Part shown: positions 4,638 through 12,881 of the stretch, one piece after another | Layout: every line of letters begins with the position of its first letter | Position numbering within the stretch: the first letter of the stretch is position 1 | NCBI GenBank assembly: GCA_964549305.1 | Contig: CAZJVM010000066.1 | Location: forward strand, 1-12,990 | Reading direction: 5' to 3' | Source: an uncultured bacterium | Lineage (GTDB): Bacteria > Schekmanbacteria > GWA2-38-11 > J061 | Length of the DNA stretch: 12,990 bases | Translations under genes and position numbers: made by a program | The notes under the pieces: model-generated | The model's input: the letters and a program-made list of their open reading frames with translations, nothing else | What the model was told of the DNA's origin: nothing | Databases searched by the model: none

Positions 4638-6239
4638 ATGAGCAATAGTGAAAACAATAAAATATTTCCTATGAGCGAGGGCGTAAAATCCGCCTATGAC
4701 AGGGGTGAAGAAGACGAATCGATGAATCCCATAGTCCTCGAGGAAAATGGCATCCGTCCGGGAAAAATCGGTAATGAGGAGTATGTCATCTTTTACGACA
4801 TCAGGGGCGAAAGGGAAATCGAGCTTACAAAAAGTTTCATTGAAAAGGGATTCAGCGAATTCCCGAAAGAAGACAACCGCACCGCGAAATTCGTTACAAT
4901 GGTAGAGTACAGCAAGGACCTCGATGTGGATGTGGCATTTCCGCCTGAGGAGGAGATTGAAAATACACTATGCGAAGTAATAAGCAAAAACGGTCTGAAG
5001 CAGGCAAAGATTGTTGAAACCGAAAAAGCAGTGCATCTGAGCTATTTTTTGAACGGCAAAAGGAGCGAACCTTTTGAAGGTGAAGAGAGGATATTCATTC
5101 CTTCGCTTAAGGATATAAGCAATTATGATGACTATCCTGAAATGTGTATCGACAAAGTCACAGACACAGTGGAAAAATGCCTTTGTGAAGGAAAAAACAA
5201 TCTTGTAATAGCAAACTTCGCGAATGTTGATGTAGTGGGACATATAGAGAATGAATCAGCAGTAAAAAAAGCGGTCGAGGCAGTGGACAGGGCAATAGGA
5301 AAAGTCGTGGAATGCGCAGGCAAAAACGGCTATGCGAGCATCATAACGGCAGACCACGGAACTGTGGAAAAATGGCTTTATCCCGAAGGCACGGTAGATA
5401 CTGGACATACAAACAGTCCGGTACCATTCATAATAGTTTTTCCCGACAATGACTCCGGTAAACTGAAATTACAATTAAGGGAAGATGCTGAATTAAGCGA
5501 TGTGGCACCCACTGTTTTTGACCTGATGGACATTGATAAACCTTCCTCAATGACGGGAAAATCTATTATTGCGGAAAAGTCGAATTTATCAAAAGACCCT
5601 CGAAAAGTTCTTTTCCTCATATGTGACGGATGGGGATACAACGATAAATCCCAAGGCAACCTTATCGCGCAAAGCAAAACACCCAATATGGACAAGTTCA
5701 TGAAAAACTGTCCATTCACATCTATAATTTCATCAGGTAAGGCAGTTGGTATGCCCGCGGGCACTGTGGGAAATTCCGAAGTGGGACATCTTCATATCGG
5801 AGCGGGAAGAAGAATCTACTCCGACCGTTTGCGTATCGACAAGGCAATGGAAGACAACTCATTCTTCGAAAATGCAGCGTTCACCAAAGCGATGGAAGAA
5901 TCGATAAAAAACAATACCCCTCTTCATCTTCTCGGAATCGTTTCCTTTTACAGTTCACACGGTTCGATCACTGACCTTTTCGGACTGATGGAAATGGCAA
6001 AACAGAAAGGCGTAAAGGAAGTCTATATCCACTCCTTTTTGGGAAGACGCGGAGAAAGACCCGAAAGCGGCAGAAGATATATCAGGCAGGTTGAGGAAAA
6101 GGCGAAAGAACTTGGTGTGGGAAAACTCGTCGATGTTATGGGACGATTCTGGTCACTTGACCGCGAGGAAAACTGGGACAGAATCGAAAAAACATACCGC
6201 ACCCTCGCCTATCGTGAAGGCATAGCAGTAAAGGTTTAA
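4638..6239 (+). CDS. gpmI: 2,3-bisphosphoglycerate-independent phosphoglycerate mutase homologue (alkaline-phosphatase superfamily), circularly permuted
   Basis: All iPGM motifs are present but out of order. Residues ~12-311 carry AYDRGEEDE, IRGER, ETEKAVH, NFANVDVVGH, ITADHG, TGHTNSPVP, LSDVAPT, MTGKSII (canonical C-terminal part). Residues ~322-533 carry LFLICDGWG, KTPNMD, SGKAVGMP, GNSEVGHLHIGAGR, GRFWSLDRE-x-NWDRIEK (canonical N-terminal part). Confidence 0.9.
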   Translation: MSNSENNKIFPMSEGVKSAYDRGEEDESMNPIVLEENGIRPGKIGNEEYVIFYDIRGEREIELTKSFIEKGFSEFPKEDNRTAKFVTMVEYSKDLDVDVAFPPEEEIENTLCEVISKNGLKQAKIVETEKAVHLSYFLNGKRSEPFEGEERIFIPSLKDISNYDDYPEMCIDKVTDTVEKCLCEGKNNLVIANFANVDVVGHIENESAVKKAVEAVDRAIGKVVECAGKNGYASIITADHGTVEKWLYPEGTVDTGHTNSPVPFIIVFPDNDSGKLKLQLREDAELSDVAPTVFDLMDIDKPSSMTGKSIIAEKSNLSKDPRKVLFLICDGWGYNDKSQGNLIAQSKTPNMDKFMKNCPFTSIISSGKAVGMPAGTVGNSEVGHLHIGAGRRIYSDRLRIDKAMEDNSFFENAAFTKAMEESIKNNTPLHLLGIVSFYSSHGSITDLFGLMEMAKQKGVKEVYIHSFLGRRGERPESGRRYIRQVEEKAKELGVGKLVDVMGRFWSLDREENWDRIEKTYRTLAYREGIAVKV

Positions 6240-8277: not shown

Positions 8278-10227
8278 TTAATTTATAACGGCTTTCAGCT
8301 TCTTCATCTCGGGAATTATTTCAGCCAATCCGAGCGTTTCGAGATTATCTTCCTTCTGTAATCCCGAAACGCTGTCCCATCCCCTGAGATTGTAATAATC
8401 GGTCATCATTTCATCAAACTCTTCCCTGTTCACAACACTTCCTTTTCTCGACACAAGGTTGCCGGAATTTCCGGGAAGCATAAATTCCGGATTGAACATT
8501 CCGAAAAATCCCGGAGACTCTTCAAAGGTTTCACTGTAATTGAATTCATTGAGAATATCATCCTCTCTGCCTCTTCGCCCTTCCCTGCACTGAATAGCCC
8601 GTTGAAGATTGAATGTTCTCTCACCGCTCAGATAGTATTTCGCCTCGTCGAAATTCTCGCCCGTAACCGCTGAAAGGAGGCGGCTTTCCAGGCAAGGGTC
8701 GCCGACCATATCCCCGGCGCCTTCGGCTACGGTAAGAGGAAAAAGGAAATCACAGACAACGAGATTTTCCTTTGCGTATTCTCTGTCCTGAATAATGCGT
8801 GCAACATCTGCCTTGCCCCGGAAGGAAGAGAAATCTACGGCATTTTCGCTTCCCCAGAATTTTTTTGCAACTTTCCGCATTACTTCCGTACTCACGGGGG
8901 ACATAGCTCCATTCGTGGCATACCACATAACCCACTTCATCATAGGCATACATATTTCGTGAAGCTGATTTATAATGCTCGTTGTTTCCGTTGCGTAAAA
9001 AACCGAGTTTGTAAGGAAAAATCTCGGATTGTAAAAGTTTGCATCCCTTCCGTTGGGCGTAAGGAAGCTTTCGATTATACCTGTGCAGGAATCCCCTATT
9101 TGCTTACCCGTCCTTACTGTGCCTTCCGCAAGCAAATCGCCCAACCCTTTGCGATTTATAATAATATCAACAAGATTTTCTATGAATTCAAGGCTTCCGA
9201 TTTCAGATAGCGGAATTCCGGTGTCTTTATCGTTCAAAATTCCTCTTTCACCGCACTTGTACAGAAAGCTGAGAATGCTTCCCATTTCGTGCGTATCGAG
9301 CCCGTTTCTGTTGCAAAGGGAAGTCGCTATGAATGTATTGGGAGTGGATTCACCCTTGTTATATTTCTGGTCCCACAAAAAATACATAAATGCCGACTGG
9401 CAGTTTTTTCTGTATTCCTCTCTGCCGGAAACATGTTTCAATATTCCTCTCGGACAACCTGCGGGACAGGCAGGACAAGGGGTCTTTTTTACTAGTTCGG
9501 TCCCCGCAGTCTCAAGTCCTATAAGCTCTCTGCCCTTTATGAGAGAACGGATGTACGCGTTTGTCTCCTTGAGTTCGTCGGGTTTCGCCACAAGCGGTTT
9601 CCCGCTCCCCTCTACGACTATCGCCTTAAGGTTTTTTGCCCCCATTACAGCGCCGAATCCCGCGCCCGCGCAGGCGCCTCTGTCACTCATAATTATGGAA
9701 AATCTGATCTTCCTTTCTCCCGCGGGACCTATGCAAAGCGCCTGTGAATTAACACCATGACTTTTCGCCAGAGCATCGAGAGTGTCATCGGTTTTTCTTC
9801 CCCACAATGCGCCGGCATCCTCAAATCTGATTTTGTCATCTTTGATATGTATATAGGAAGGTCTCTCCGATTTTCCCGTAATCACTATCCCGTCATATCC
9901 TGCCGATTTAAGTGAAATAGCGAAACTGCCTCCCACATTACCGTATGAAAACTGGTCCGGATATAAAAGCGGCGATTTGCCTCCAATCACCCATCTCGAA
10001 CCCGCGACAGCAGAAGTCCCTGCGAGAGGACCCGTCATAAGAATAAGAGGACTGTCGCGGTGAAGGGCATCCTTTCCCCTATCTGAATAATCCCAGTAAA
10101 TTTTTGAAAGGATTCCCCTGCCTCCCACGAATTTATCACAGTACTTATCAGTGGGGATTGTCTGAATATCTCCCGAGGAAAGATCAAGGGCTAAAATCCT
10201 GCCGCACCATCCGAAATATTTATCCAT
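8278..10227 (-). CDS. Aldehyde:ferredoxin oxidoreductase (AOR/WOR) family W/Mo-bis-pterin, [4Fe-4S] enzyme
   Basis: 649 aa. GWCGRILALDLSSG, VGGRG, TGPLAG, KSP, LKSAGYDGIVITGKS, LWG, CIGPAGE, GAVMGAKNLKAI, CPACPAGC plus late VVCDF (4Fe-4S ligands), CNRNGLD, RKGLGDLLAEG, GER, YYNLRGWD..G. Confidence 0.93.
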   Translation of the reverse strand: MDKYFGWCGRILALDLSSGDIQTIPTDKYCDKFVGGRGILSKIYWDYSDRGKDALHRDSPLILMTGPLAGTSAVAGSRWVIGGKSPLLYPDQFSYGNVGGSFAISLKSAGYDGIVITGKSERPSYIHIKDDKIRFEDAGALWGRKTDDTLDALAKSHGVNSQALCIGPAGERKIRFSIIMSDRGACAGAGFGAVMGAKNLKAIVVEGSGKPLVAKPDELKETNAYIRSLIKGRELIGLETAGTELVKKTPCPACPAGCPRGILKHVSGREEYRKNCQSAFMYFLWDQKYNKGESTPNTFIATSLCNRNGLDTHEMGSILSFLYKCGERGILNDKDTGIPLSEIGSLEFIENLVDIIINRKGLGDLLAEGTVRTGKQIGDSCTGIIESFLTPNGRDANFYNPRFFLTNSVFYATETTSIINQLHEICMPMMKWVMWYATNGAMSPVSTEVMRKVAKKFWGSENAVDFSSFRGKADVARIIQDREYAKENLVVCDFLFPLTVAEGAGDMVGDPCLESRLLSAVTGENFDEAKYYLSGERTFNLQRAIQCREGRRGREDDILNEFNYSETFEESPGFFGMFNPEFMLPGNSGNLVSRKGSVVNREEFDEMMTDYYNLRGWDSVSGLQKEDNLETLGLAEIIPEMKKLKAVIN

Positions 10228-10266: not shown

Positions 10267-11238
10267 TCAGTAATGCACCGTTGGCGGCATTCCCATAAGG
10301 CGTATCGCTCCAAAGGGATGATTTCTCGCTCTTGCCATTTTAACGGCGCCGTCCTTCAGGAAAAGATACTCCATCCAATGGGCGCGCATCTCATTCATTC
10401 GAAGTTTATCCTTTCCGCTTTCCTCTTCATCTTTATGCTTCCTGACAATATCCGCGTATGATGACAGAAGGGTTTCCGCTCCTTCCTTCGCGATGCCCAT
10501 AGCCCGGGAAAGGTTGAGCATTTTGAGCTGTATTCCTGCGCCTGCGGAAAGAGGTTTTTCCCATTCTTCCATATTGTATTGCTTTTGAAGGCCCGCACTG
10601 AGCTTTTCGTGGTCATAGCCGTATTTTTCCGCCACAGCTTTCATTTTCTTCCTTACTCCTTCTATGACGTCTTCAGGAGTCGATGCGGGAAAGACATCAA
10701 AGTTCGTATTGATTATATCTTTGCGGGCATCGAGGCGCTCGATATTGAGATGCCCCATGGGAATCTTTGAAGAACGGGGAAATATTTCTACCTGTATAAC
10801 GCGTATATCCACAGGATCGCCTTCCTTTGCCAATCCTCTTTCAATCATAAATTCCGACGGTTTTTTATATTTTATGACTATCTCCGATACAGTCGCTTTC
10901 TCGAAAACACTGCCTCTTGAAACATTCACTTCGTGCCGGTATGAAGATTCGCTTCCCGAATCCTTTTCCTCTGACGGTGTCATATGGGTAAATGTTTTCT
11001 TTTCCCATTTCTCGCCGTTGAATTCCGAAATTACGCTGATAGCGCGGGCTTTGAAGGAGTCCATAAATTTGTCCGCTTGAAAGAGAAGATTGTCAGGCAT
11101 TTTTTTCACCTCTTGCGCCAAAGTTTCCGGTTGCGAGTAAGAAATCCCGAAAGATGCGCACACTAAAACAAAGAGCAACAGCAAAGGCGCTTTATCTAAA
11201 ATATTTTTTTTATTTTCCGCTGTTCTTCCAGTATTCAT
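10267..11238 (-). CDS. Divergent HemF (oxygen-dependent coproporphyrinogen III oxidase)-like protein with N-terminal signal/membrane segment; function unknown
   Basis: Collinear matches to HemF as I recall it: GSVFEKATVS ~ GGVFEQAGVN; EIFPRSSKIPMGHLN ~ VVHPHNPYVPTSHAN; FDVFP ~ FDLTP; SYADIVRKHK ~ AYLPIVERRK; MRAHWMEYLFLKD ~ RRGRYVEFNLVWD; MGMPPTVHY ~ MSMPPLVRW. Start uncertain: TTG 11253, ATG 11250, ATG 11238, or ATG 11100 (has a GAGGTG SD). Confidence 0.75.
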   Translation of the reverse strand: MNTGRTAENKKNILDKAPLLLLFVLVCASFGISYSQPETLAQEVKKMPDNLLFQADKFMDSFKARAISVISEFNGEKWEKKTFTHMTPSEEKDSGSESSYRHEVNVSRGSVFEKATVSEIVIKYKKPSEFMIERGLAKEGDPVDIRVIQVEIFPRSSKIPMGHLNIERLDARKDIINTNFDVFPASTPEDVIEGVRKKMKAVAEKYGYDHEKLSAGLQKQYNMEEWEKPLSAGAGIQLKMLNLSRAMGIAKEGAETLLSSYADIVRKHKDEEESGKDKLRMNEMRAHWMEYLFLKDGAVKMARARNHPFGAIRLMGMPPTVHY

Positions 11239-12691
11239 CCCATTTTTCATCAACTAATTTAAAGGACTCGGGAACCATTTTTTCCAGCTGAACCTTGCTT
11301 ATGAGAGGCCATTGCGCGGGTCCTCCCTCAATTGGAAGCTGTCTTGTGGCATCGATTACAATCTTGCTCGAAATACCTCTCTGCTTCATACTCGGGTCAA
11401 GCCCCATATTAAATGCCTGAGGTATAATCAGACTTGCCGGATGGGGTTGCCATCTCGTGGAAACCGCGTGAAGGACTTCAGTAATATTGGTAACATCCAC
11501 ATCGTCATCTACGACTATTATAATCTTCGACGTCCCCACTCCCAGCGCAATCTGCCCCGCAGTGATACCCATTCCGGGGAACCTCTTGCTGATGCTTAAA
11601 ATAGATATGCCTATAGCTTCCATTGGAGAATATAAATCCGTCATATAGGGAATGACCTGCTTAAGTTTGATATAGTTGCCAACCTGCCACGGCAGCATAT
11701 GGGATGTATAAGTCACTCCCGTGAAATTGTTGAATGTCCAGGGATTCTTTTTATGAGTTATCGCTTTCACATTCATATAATAGGTTTCGTGTTTTTTACC
11801 CATATAGCCGTACATTTCGCCGTAAGGTCCTTCCTCCTCCATCTCCGCGATGACGTCGCCTTCGATAATCATTTCCGCCTCCGCGGGTACCATAAGACTG
11901 CTTGTTTCGCATTTAACGAGTTCTACGGGTTTACCCTTTACACCCCCGGCATACTCTAACTCGTCTTCGCCCATATCTGCCACCTTGGTGCTTGCCATAG
12001 AATAGATTACGGGCTCAACCCCGAGAGCGATTGCCGCGGGAATCGATTTTTGCCCCTGCCTGACCGCTTTCATTATAAACTGCCAACCGTGCTGTCCCGG
12101 TTCGGTATTCATCCCTATCTTGTTTTTTCCCTTTACCTGCAACCTGTAAGTGCCCACATTTCGGCCAAGCTGAGGGTCTTCCATAAAAACCGAACCCGTG
12201 TTTATGTATTGGGCAACATCGCCGGGATTGTTCTTAAACCAGGGAAATTTATAGACATCAACATCATTTTCCTCTATTACAACCTCCTTGCAGGGAGGGT
12301 TGTCTCCGCTGAATTCAACGGGTTTGATTCTCTTCCATTTGCCGTTATTGTCAACGAAACCGATAAGTTTATCCATTACCGCCCTGTACATCGCGCCCGC
12401 GTCATCGGTAACATTTTCCACTCCAAACATCATCGCCGCGGTTTCCCATCCGCAGAATTGGTTGGAAATAACCGGACCTTCCATCAATTCGCCGTTGATT
12501 TTCACTTTTTCAAAAATAAGCGCGGGACAGCGGTCCGCGCCAAGTTTTTCAATCATTCTGTAGACAAAGGCAGTGCCTTCATATTTGTCCTGGTCAATCT
12601 CCGGAATTCTAAGCACCTTGCCTCTTTCCTCAAGAGCGTTTATATATTCCCGCATTGAATCGTAAGGACCCGTAGCTTTTACATTGCTCAT
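11210..12691 (-). CDS. UbiD-family prenylated-FMN-dependent (de)carboxylase
   Basis: SMREYINALEERG, FEKVK, PCKEVVI, RNVGTYRLQ, QHG, AEMIIEG, EGPYGEMYGY, IIIVVDDDVDV, LDPS, KIVIDAT. Start moved from 12811 (ORF track) to ATG 12691 because of a TAAGGAG SD at 12707-12701 and because homology begins there (493 aa). Substrate cannot be assigned. Confidence 0.95.
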   Translation of the reverse strand: MSNVKATGPYDSMREYINALEERGKVLRIPEIDQDKYEGTAFVYRMIEKLGADRCPALIFEKVKINGELMEGPVISNQFCGWETAAMMFGVENVTDDAGAMYRAVMDKLIGFVDNNGKWKRIKPVEFSGDNPPCKEVVIEENDVDVYKFPWFKNNPGDVAQYINTGSVFMEDPQLGRNVGTYRLQVKGKNKIGMNTEPGQHGWQFIMKAVRQGQKSIPAAIALGVEPVIYSMASTKVADMGEDELEYAGGVKGKPVELVKCETSSLMVPAEAEMIIEGDVIAEMEEEGPYGEMYGYMGKKHETYYMNVKAITHKKNPWTFNNFTGVTYTSHMLPWQVGNYIKLKQVIPYMTDLYSPMEAIGISILSISKRFPGMGITAGQIALGVGTSKIIIVVDDDVDVTNITEVLHAVSTRWQPHPASLIIPQAFNMGLDPSMKQRGISSKIVIDATRQLPIEGGPAQWPLISKVQLEKMVPESFKLVDEKWDEYWKNSGK

Positions 12692-12881
12692 AGAAAATAT
12701 CTCCTTAAAATTATGAATGTTGGAACGGTAAAACAAATCTTCCACTTTTGTAAATCTAAAAATCATATATGCAAAGTAAAAAAACATCAAATAACTATGC
12801 GATTTTTTCATTGGATTTAGTAAAAGGATGGTAAAGAATCAAGATATAAAATATTATTTTTGCTTAGAGTTATTATTTTTA

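Follow-up and report, generated by a model that had tools for sequence, protein, structure and literature searches.

A HemF-fold protein with replaced arginines encoded between UbiD and AOR genes in a Schekmanbacteria genome

What does a protein with the fold of coproporphyrinogen III oxidase (HemF) do when the conserved arginines of the HemF motifs have been replaced? The question is raised by a 277-codon gene on contig CAZJVM010000066.1 of an uncultured bacterium from the phylum Schekmanbacteria; the whole stretch of 12,990 nucleotides that was analyzed is called the window, and the product of the gene is called the target. Sequence, profile, structure and phylogeny together support the view that the target is not a working coproporphyrinogen III oxidase. 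The explanation that we favor, with a probability of about 0.55, is that it is a cofactor-free enzyme (less likely a binding protein) whose HemF cleft serves a carboxylate-poor substrate, pyrrolic or aromatic, as part of a low-potential pathway that also involves a UbiD-family decarboxylase and an AOR-family oxidoreductase.

The HemF fold and its replaced motif residues

The assignment of the target to the HemF family and fold, made in an initial annotation from the sequence alone, has been upheld by profile and structure comparisons. The Pfam profile Coprogen_oxidas (PF01218) aligns its positions 7–270 of 295 with residues 14–277 of the target at 32.9 bits (E = 3.4e-8), which is a borderline pass of the gathering threshold of 31.8 bits. 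The NCBIfam HemF equivalog model NF003727 gives the target 35.4 bits and fails it at the curated cut-off of 297, whereas 13 of 13 canonical HemFs used as a positive control scored 307–465 bits. A single-sequence phmmer search of the PDB with the target returned no HemF among 18 matches at E ≤ 10. By contrast, all nine matches at E ≤ 1 of a profile made from 21 orthologues are coproporphyrinogen oxidases, the best of them with an E-value of 6.2e-5. The AlphaFold2 model of the target, calculated from 38 sequences, has a pLDDT of 93.4 and a pTM of 0.91 and displays the alpha/beta/alpha-sandwich fold of HemF. In a Foldseek search with the model, HemF structures ranked first (E 1e-11, TM-scores 0.74–0.82), followed by PcyA, PebB, PebA and RCCR with TM-scores of about 0.5. 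The kinship of the target with HemF is visible to profiles and structure, not to a single-sequence search.

The conserved HemF motifs were mapped in an orthologue-profile alignment to Leishmania HemF, a paralogue alignment to Klebsiella HemF, and a family alignment. All three agree with the readings of the initial annotation (HLNIE(R), DGAV, FPRSS, NTNFDVFP, and an unrecognisable RGxGG). The motif HPxNP corresponds to F107-P-R-S110-S, with F107 in place of the histidine, and S-H-x-N-x-R corresponds to G-H117-L-N119-I-E121, in which E121, invariant in the 21 orthologues, occupies the position of the arginine. The next residue, R122, is one position past that arginine and would face the other side if the segment forms a regular beta-strand. 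GGGxDLTP is represented by N-T-N133-F-D135-V-F-P; RxxxRGxGG by W180-E-K-P-L184-S-A-G-A-G189, with W180 and L184 instead of the two arginines; RRGRYxEFNL by M-R239-A-H241-W-M-E244-Y-L; and DRGT by D250-G-A-V, in which the aspartate is kept and the arginine is replaced by G251. The chain ends with PPTVHY, about 25 residues short of the HemF end (profile position 270 of 295). In the human enzyme, R262 is presumably the arginine of HxNxR and binds a carboxylate, and we take D400 and R401 to be those of DRGT. The conserved arginine positions of HxNxR, RxxxRG and DRGT are all replaced in the target, which retains H117, N119 and D135 of the central sheet and the DRGT aspartate D250. Across the 21 orthologues, the residues that stand in for those of HemF do not vary or hardly vary. 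Therefore, they form a fixed alternative site and are not the product of decay. Together with the score of 35.4 against 297 bits and the separate clade described below, the replaced arginines sustain the initial conclusion that the target is not a working HemF.

Orthologues that are 45–51% identical to the target have a mean column identity of 73%, about 50 invariant positions and many near-invariant polar residues. The proportions of nonsynonymous and synonymous differences from the orthologue in a genome of the same genus (G001) are 0.20 and 0.75, the latter saturated, and these comparisons indicate a live gene under purifying selection. The family is rare: 30 homologues were found at E ≤ 1e-3 in a collection of 5.8 billion proteins, and a search of 1.84 billion cluster representatives likewise gave 30, only three of them at 1e-30. 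All 30 of the best Atlas clusters carry PF01218, homologues that have names are called 'coproporphyrinogen III oxidase', and several are labelled Candidatus Schekmanbacteria. A pattern scan of genome contigs for the target yielded only two distant loci with 24–25% identity.

The position and strand of the gene, as first annotated, are correct; the mechanically derived open reading frame (ORF) is longer (10267..11253, 328 amino acids, TTG start). The features at the start of the gene are the following:
10267..11100, minus strand: gene of the HemF-fold target, 277 amino acids, with the ATG at 11100 and the stop codon included
11107..11114, minus strand: Shine-Dalgarno-like AAGAGGTG, 6 nt before the ATG of the target, read directly from the sequence
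11101..11253, minus strand: upstream extension of the mechanical ORF, 51 codons, signal-peptide-like, judged to be a non-coding spacer and the 3' end of the UbiD gene

Exactly 277 amino acids, with the start at the methionine of 11100, are found in 23 of 30 homologues. Between the UbiD stop and the ATG lie 110 nt that have low identity to those of G001, with indels of 19, 6 and 12 nt, whereas the coding flanks are conserved. In a genome of a different genus (G002), the open frame of the orthologue is only 282 amino acids long. Sequence comparison thus places the true start at the ATG at 11100. A periplasmic target, expected from the signal-peptide-like N-terminus of the 328-residue ORF, was rejected on account of the homologue starts and of the frame-breaking indels in the non-conserved upstream 110 nt; the resemblance of the long ORF to a secreted protein is therefore regarded as an artefact and the protein as cytoplasmic.

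Paralogues, phylogeny and the relation to bilin reductases

The window belongs to a genome (G000) of 2.94 Mb that is 100% complete by markers and has nine PF01218 matches, seven of which are above the cut-off with 33–141 bits. Against NF003727, the nine proteins score 26–161 bits, and none reaches 297. The phylum comprises only five species genomes, all with HemF-like genes (9, 6, 7, 3 and 2 matches); no PF01218 match was found in 36 other sampled genomes. Seven of the nine paralogues in G000 have genes of low-potential redox proteins next to them or close by (AOR, ferredoxin, Fer4_16/HEAT, NIR_SIR/Fer4, DUF362, radical SAM and flavin reductase), and some have signal peptides.

A quick maximum-likelihood tree of 50 rows was calculated from 10 proteins of the target type, 13 canonical HemFs sampled by their similarity to one paralogue, the eight paralogues from the same genome, and 19 other short forms. 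Its branches have SH-aLRT support only, and midpoint rooting was used for drawing, since the alignment to sequences resembling ferredoxin-dependent bilin reductases (FDBRs) is too distant for rooting. Proteins of the target type form a clade (SH-aLRT 99) with P0033 and P0036, one of which is from Dehalococcoidia, as sisters (95). The canonical HemFs constitute a single long-stemmed clade (100) in the other half of the tree, beside the short forms of the type encoded on contig C30 of G000. In the half of the tree that contains the target, glutamate occupies the HxNxR arginine position in 11 of 15 non-orthologue rows of the family alignment; rows of this half without it are P0042, P0054, P0049 and the paralogues C34, C8 and C82. 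The HemF half has arginine at that position, and the DRGT arginine is essentially confined to canonical HemF. The C30-type paralogue has 161 bits, keeps the HxNxR arginine and the motifs RxxxRG and RRGRWVEFNL, and is nearest to canonical HemF on the tree.

The target belongs to what is defined here as the short HemF-like Glu clade: it has a length of about 250–280 residues, the PPxVxF/Y end and the glutamate at the arginine position, and it is placed apart from canonical HemF. The claim of the initial annotation that the protein 'has lost' its binding residues presumes descent from a working HemF, which the tree does not show: the target clade is far from canonical HemF, in the Glu half. The target group may be an old sister lineage rather than a HemF that lost residues.

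The second branch of the fold is also abundant in G000, which has 17 Fe_bilin_red matches, 13 of them above the cut-off, and no match to the haem oxygenase family. Its FDBR-like genes encode true family members with 39–144 bits, and their best PDB match is PebB (E 1e-38). The target itself has no match to Fe_bilin_red (PF05996, threshold 31 bits) at E ≤ 1. A broad alignment of short HemF-like proteins (A2) is related to that of 16 FDBR-like proteins from G000 with an hhalign probability of 92.5% (E 4.8e-7, 172 columns), whereas the narrow orthologue profile (A1) reaches only 12.7% (E 0.0023) against an FDBR-like alignment (A5). In published accounts, the sequence similarity of coproporphyrinogen oxidase (CPOX) to FDBR is called not statistically significant and the known enzymes of the fold are all described as oxygen-dependent (PMC10151467, PMC13446030); a 2023 paper proposes that the whole CPOX/FDBR fold group arose together with oxygen (PMC10151467).

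A reductase was among the options of the initial annotation; a mechanism of the bilin-reductase type through the same residues is not supported. The numbering of PcyA, verified on the H88Q chain, was carried through the hhalign alignment; in this distant alignment (probability 92.5%), E76, H88 and D105 of PcyA correspond to S72, Q103 and N119 of the target, none of which is an acid or histidine donor. The set E105, H117 and D135, the spacing of which (12 and 18) resembles that of the PcyA triad (12 and 17), was considered as its mirror and dropped, as the PcyA positions map to those three other residues.

Genes of the two branches also occur side by side. A related subfamily of HemF-like proteins, of about 250 residues, is encoded beside FDBR-like and FAD_binding_3 genes in four loci (L045, L047, L048 and L001), with Flavodoxin_5 genes in addition in L048 and L001, and its member at G000:C9 adjoins FDBR-like and NIR_SIR/Fer4 genes. 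At G000:C101 (L064), an AOR of another subclade (84-1928) is followed after 21 nt by a gene for a 232-residue protein with Fe_bilin_red and RCC_reductase matches (1950-2648). An FDBR-like gene at G000:C7 (L059, 11974-16892) is near genes for ThyX, a UbiX-type flavoprotein, an FMN reductase and a 550-residue fusion of URO-D and B12-binding domains, which has a methyltransferase-corrinoid type of architecture.

Gene neighborhood and rival explanations

The target gene is part of a putative string on one strand with three neighbors:
11210..12811, minus strand: UbiD-family (prFMN-type) decarboxylase gene immediately upstream of the target; PF01977 192.7 bits, with UbiD_C and UbiD_N
8278..10227, minus strand: AOR-family tungsten/molybdopterin oxidoreductase, called AOR-X, 39 nt downstream of the target; AFOR_N 209.7 and AFOR_C 162.1 bits
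7215..8258, minus strand: di-haem cytochrome c peroxidase/MauG-family gene, 19 nt downstream of the AOR and last in the string; PF03150 198.5 bits

The gaps between the genes are 109, 39 and 19 nt. A consensus scan identified a promoter-like site upstream of UbiD, and the sole terminator-like hairpin near a junction is weak and lies inside the start of the peroxidase gene (8218-8202). This arrangement indicates that the target is probably co-transcribed with UbiD and AOR. The UbiD neighbor, one of four UbiD genes in G000, scores 273.5 bits against TIGR00148 (cut-off 244.85) and is kept beside the orthologue in G001. The best PDB match of AOR-X is 1aor (E 1.4e-58). It belongs to a divergent subclade of about 650 residues with 41–56% identity, which includes the proteins of contigs C66 (the window), C86, C34 and C30 of G000 and the neighbor in G002, and in which C251-x2-C254-x3-C258 is invariant. 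The database copy of the window AOR (P0059) has 535 residues, 79% of the 649-residue ORF, whereas homologues have 648–650; the start in the public gene call is apparently placed too far downstream.

An AOR-X gene adjoins a HemF-like gene at three places: in the window, at G000:C30, where the paralogue is the one most like HemF, and at the G002 orthologue (divergent). Given about 2559 genes and 13 AOR genes in G000, two of its nine HemF-like genes adjoin an AOR versus 0.09 expected (Poisson P ~0.004), and among all members of the fold the count is three of 25 versus 0.25 expected (P ~0.002). The initial annotation had found it odd that an O2-dependent HemF should stand next to a typically O2-labile AOR. 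The association with AOR is above chance and recurs in G002; however, the argument from oxygen is soft, as COX1-family and di-haem peroxidase genes are present.

From the observed fold, residue replacements, conservation, paralogy and neighborhood, we infer that the protein is catalytic, what kind of substrate it has and that its chemistry is tied to that of UbiD and AOR. In this reading, the target is a soluble cytoplasmic protein from an old, separate branch of short (~250–280 residues) HemF-like proteins with a conserved glutamate (E121), and has kept the whole HemF alpha/beta/alpha-sandwich and the substrate cleft. The cleft and the retained His/Asp acid-base pair may act on a planar, electron-rich (pyrrolic or phenolic) substrate with fewer carboxylates than coproporphyrinogen. 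A low-potential pathway is suggested because of the probable co-transcription of the target with UbiD and AOR. In such a pathway, the AOR would interconvert an aromatic or heteroaromatic aldehyde and the acid, UbiD would take off CO2, and the HemF-like protein would perform a side-chain or ring step.

Several observations weigh against this explanation. The retained H117, N119, D135 and D250 are candidate HemF catalytic residues. The P-values for adjacency are overstated, as paralogous pairs are not independent. In G001 (L051, G001:C216, 1-3633), UbiD and the HemF-like gene are followed 116 nt later by the peroxidase, with no AOR between them, and there is no UbiD at the G002 orthologue locus. 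No AOR or UbiD domains were found among the scanned neighbors in 11 metagenome orthologue loci (47–54% identity, many on short contigs); the neighbors there are Kelch proteins, alpha/beta-hydrolases, an O-methyltransferase and second HemF-like genes. AOR-X homologues number 3947 at E ≤ 1e-30 among 8000 candidates scored, versus 30 for the target family; therefore, the target is not an obligate partner of AOR. The haem steps after coproporphyrinogen are unrecognisable in G000: its URO-D family genes reach 324.6 bits, the best HemN match has 154.8 bits against a cut-off of 325, the best ferrochelatase match only 28.5 bits, and neither ChdC nor an AhbA/B-type domain was found in the genome, which encodes c-type cytochromes and a COX1-family oxidase. 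Some HemF-like paralogue could act on coproporphyrinogen and fill this gap, and the COX1-family gene makes O2-dependent chemistry possible.

The gap bears on the very unlikely alternative that the target is itself a variant of coproporphyrinogen III oxidase or decarboxylase that uses O2 or another acceptor. Such a variant would agree with the passed PF01218 gathering score, with the four retained residues, with the lack of canonical HemF and of HemN above the cut-off in a genome that encodes haem proteins, and with the peroxidase gene in the string; HemF makes H2O2. It is opposed by the NF003727 score (35 versus 297 bits), the charge reversal at the HxNxR arginine and the loss of the other three conserved arginines, and by the C30-type paralogue, which its motifs mark as a far better candidate for an enzyme of coproporphyrinogen. 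A higher, though still low, probability is given to a non-catalytic carrier, sensor or other ligand-binding protein, which would hold a tetrapyrrole-like or aromatic compound and hand it over or buffer it. The fold binds cyclic or linear tetrapyrroles in the structures of all characterized relatives, HemF, bilin reductases and RCCR being, to our knowledge, its only characterized users; the substrate-anchoring arginines are gone; the neighbors differ between lineages, as for a generic binder; and some paralogues have signal peptides, the C8 gene being next to that of a TonB-dependent receptor. However, the invariant histidine, asparagine and aspartate and further polar residues, preserved in orthologues with about 50% identity, appear to fit catalysis better.

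Two explanations derive the function of the target from its partners. A ferredoxin-dependent, cofactor-free reductase resembling bilin reductases, supplied with ferredoxin reduced by the neighboring AOR, is quite unlikely, given the residues at the PcyA positions in the distant alignment, the missing Fe_bilin_red match and the weak similarity of the narrow orthologue profile to FDBR-like proteins. Least probable, and by a wide measure improbable, is that the target assists or matures one of the neighboring enzymes, for instance in oxidative prFMN maturation of UbiD or pterin handling of AOR. The gene lies between UbiD and AOR-X in G000, and its orthologues beside UbiD in G001 and beside AOR-X in G002, and each AOR-X paralogue has a different small neighbor (HemF-like, DUF169 or PNPOx-like), as such a factor might. 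However, only one of the four UbiD and two of the 13 AOR genes in G000 have a HemF-like neighbor, AOR-X is widespread without the target family, and the scanned metagenome orthologue loci lack both UbiD and AOR. The cofactor-free enzyme with a carboxylate-poor substrate remains the explanation that we favor.

Other features were observed around genes of these families. Directly downstream of target orthologues in four metagenome loci is a gene for a Cys-rich protein composed of two tandem TIGR04076 repeats (L036:6801-7517, L038:4630-5346, L043:419-1186 and L046:223-888); it overlaps the 3' end of the orthologue in L036, L038 and L043, and L036 and L038 are identical. Homologues of it are encoded on C17, C97 and C82 of G000, and one of these lies at a distance of 3 kb from the HemF-like gene of C82. 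At G000:C25 (L033, 7020-11248), genes for a HemF-like protein (261 residues), a Fer4_16/HEAT protein (371 residues, with epoxyqueuosine-reductase-type domains), a ferredoxin (161 residues) and a canonical AOR (595 residues) form a string in this order, in which the HemF-like gene is three genes away from the AOR. The locus at G000:C8 (L028, 1393-10293) contains genes for a TonB-dependent receptor, a 603-residue unknown protein, a fusion of DUF169 and protochlorophyllide-reductase-like domains, a HemF-like protein with a signal-peptide-like N-terminus, a metallo-beta-lactamase and DUF362; it is possible that this is an uptake or processing locus. DUF169 genes lie beside those of AOR-X (C34, L070:1231-1944), an FDBR-like protein (C5, L067:1814-2530) and a HemF-like protein (C8, L028:6236-7204). 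Elsewhere in the window (4638-6239, plus strand), a 533-residue cofactor-independent phosphoglycerate mutase is circularly permuted: its residues 322–529 correspond to 4–211 of 1ejj and residues 14–312 to 218–510, the order of its Pfam domains is likewise reversed, and a 532-residue ORF occupies the syntenic place in G001.

Wider meaning and comparison with known systems

If the target is an anaerobic enzyme with a new substrate, the chemistry of the fold would be wider than recognized, its history would be re-rooted, and public 'coproporphyrinogen III oxidase' names would be corrected; if it is only a binder, the value would be modest and mainly one of annotation. Of greater interest is the wider pattern: throughout the phylum, HemF-like and FDBR-like proteins have radiated, with AOR genes beside theirs, and the genomes have no haem oxygenase. 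A profile alignment links the two families significantly, and some HemF-like genes are repeatedly found beside AOR. The non-photosynthetic G000, with 13 AOR genes, nine HemF-like and 17 FDBR-like matches and no haem oxygenase match, offers a bench-testable counter-example to an oxygen-linked origin of the fold. A speculative and doubtful extension is that the HemF/FDBR fold is not bound to oxygen and that its radiation in this small candidate phylum has given each genome two dozen cofactor-free enzymes, which would serve low-potential, AOR- and ferredoxin-linked anaerobic chemistry on pyrrolic or aromatic acids, perhaps in the anaerobic breakdown or salvage of tetrapyrroles or as an O2-independent replacement of the missing late haem steps; the target, UbiD and AOR-X would be one module of it, and canonical O2-dependent HemF a late offshoot of the anaerobic radiation and not its ancestor. 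In the literature on HemF-like proteins, FDBRs, pre-PcyA, Schekmanbacteria and AOR, with the supplementary trees of PMC10151467 outside the scope, no account was found of the short HemF-like family or its link to AOR.

Among known systems, HemF/CPOX (PF01218; NF003727; PDB 1vju, 8t7w, 2aex and 1tkl) shares the fold of the target; however, the target is distinguished from it by its equivalog score and its separate clade, by the absence of the HPxNP histidine, the HxNxR arginine (a glutamate instead), both RxxxRG arginines and the DRGT arginine, and by a chain that stops at PPTVHY, about 25 residues earlier. The FDBRs (PcyA, PebA, PebB and HY2; PF05996), pre-PcyA and RCCR are more distant, as the target has no Pfam FDBR match and is structurally much closer to HemF. 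A precedent for altered substrate specificity within the HemF family is HemF2 of the tolyporphin gene cluster, which is described as a non-canonical protein, moderately similar to HemF, that decarboxylates the propionates of rings C and D (PMC10548856). By that description, HemF2 is still a porphyrinogen propionate decarboxylase, whereas the target is without the carboxylate-binding arginines. The closest known relatives are short proteins from anaerobes that carry the name 'coproporphyrinogen III oxidase family', such as MCX8125598.1 from a Dehalococcoidia metagenome-assembled genome and those from Candidatus Schekmanbacteria metagenome-assembled genomes. The target is a member of this group, the proteins of which have 248–290 residues, end with PPxVxF/Y and match PF01218 weakly; none has been characterized, and their public names are given by transfer only.

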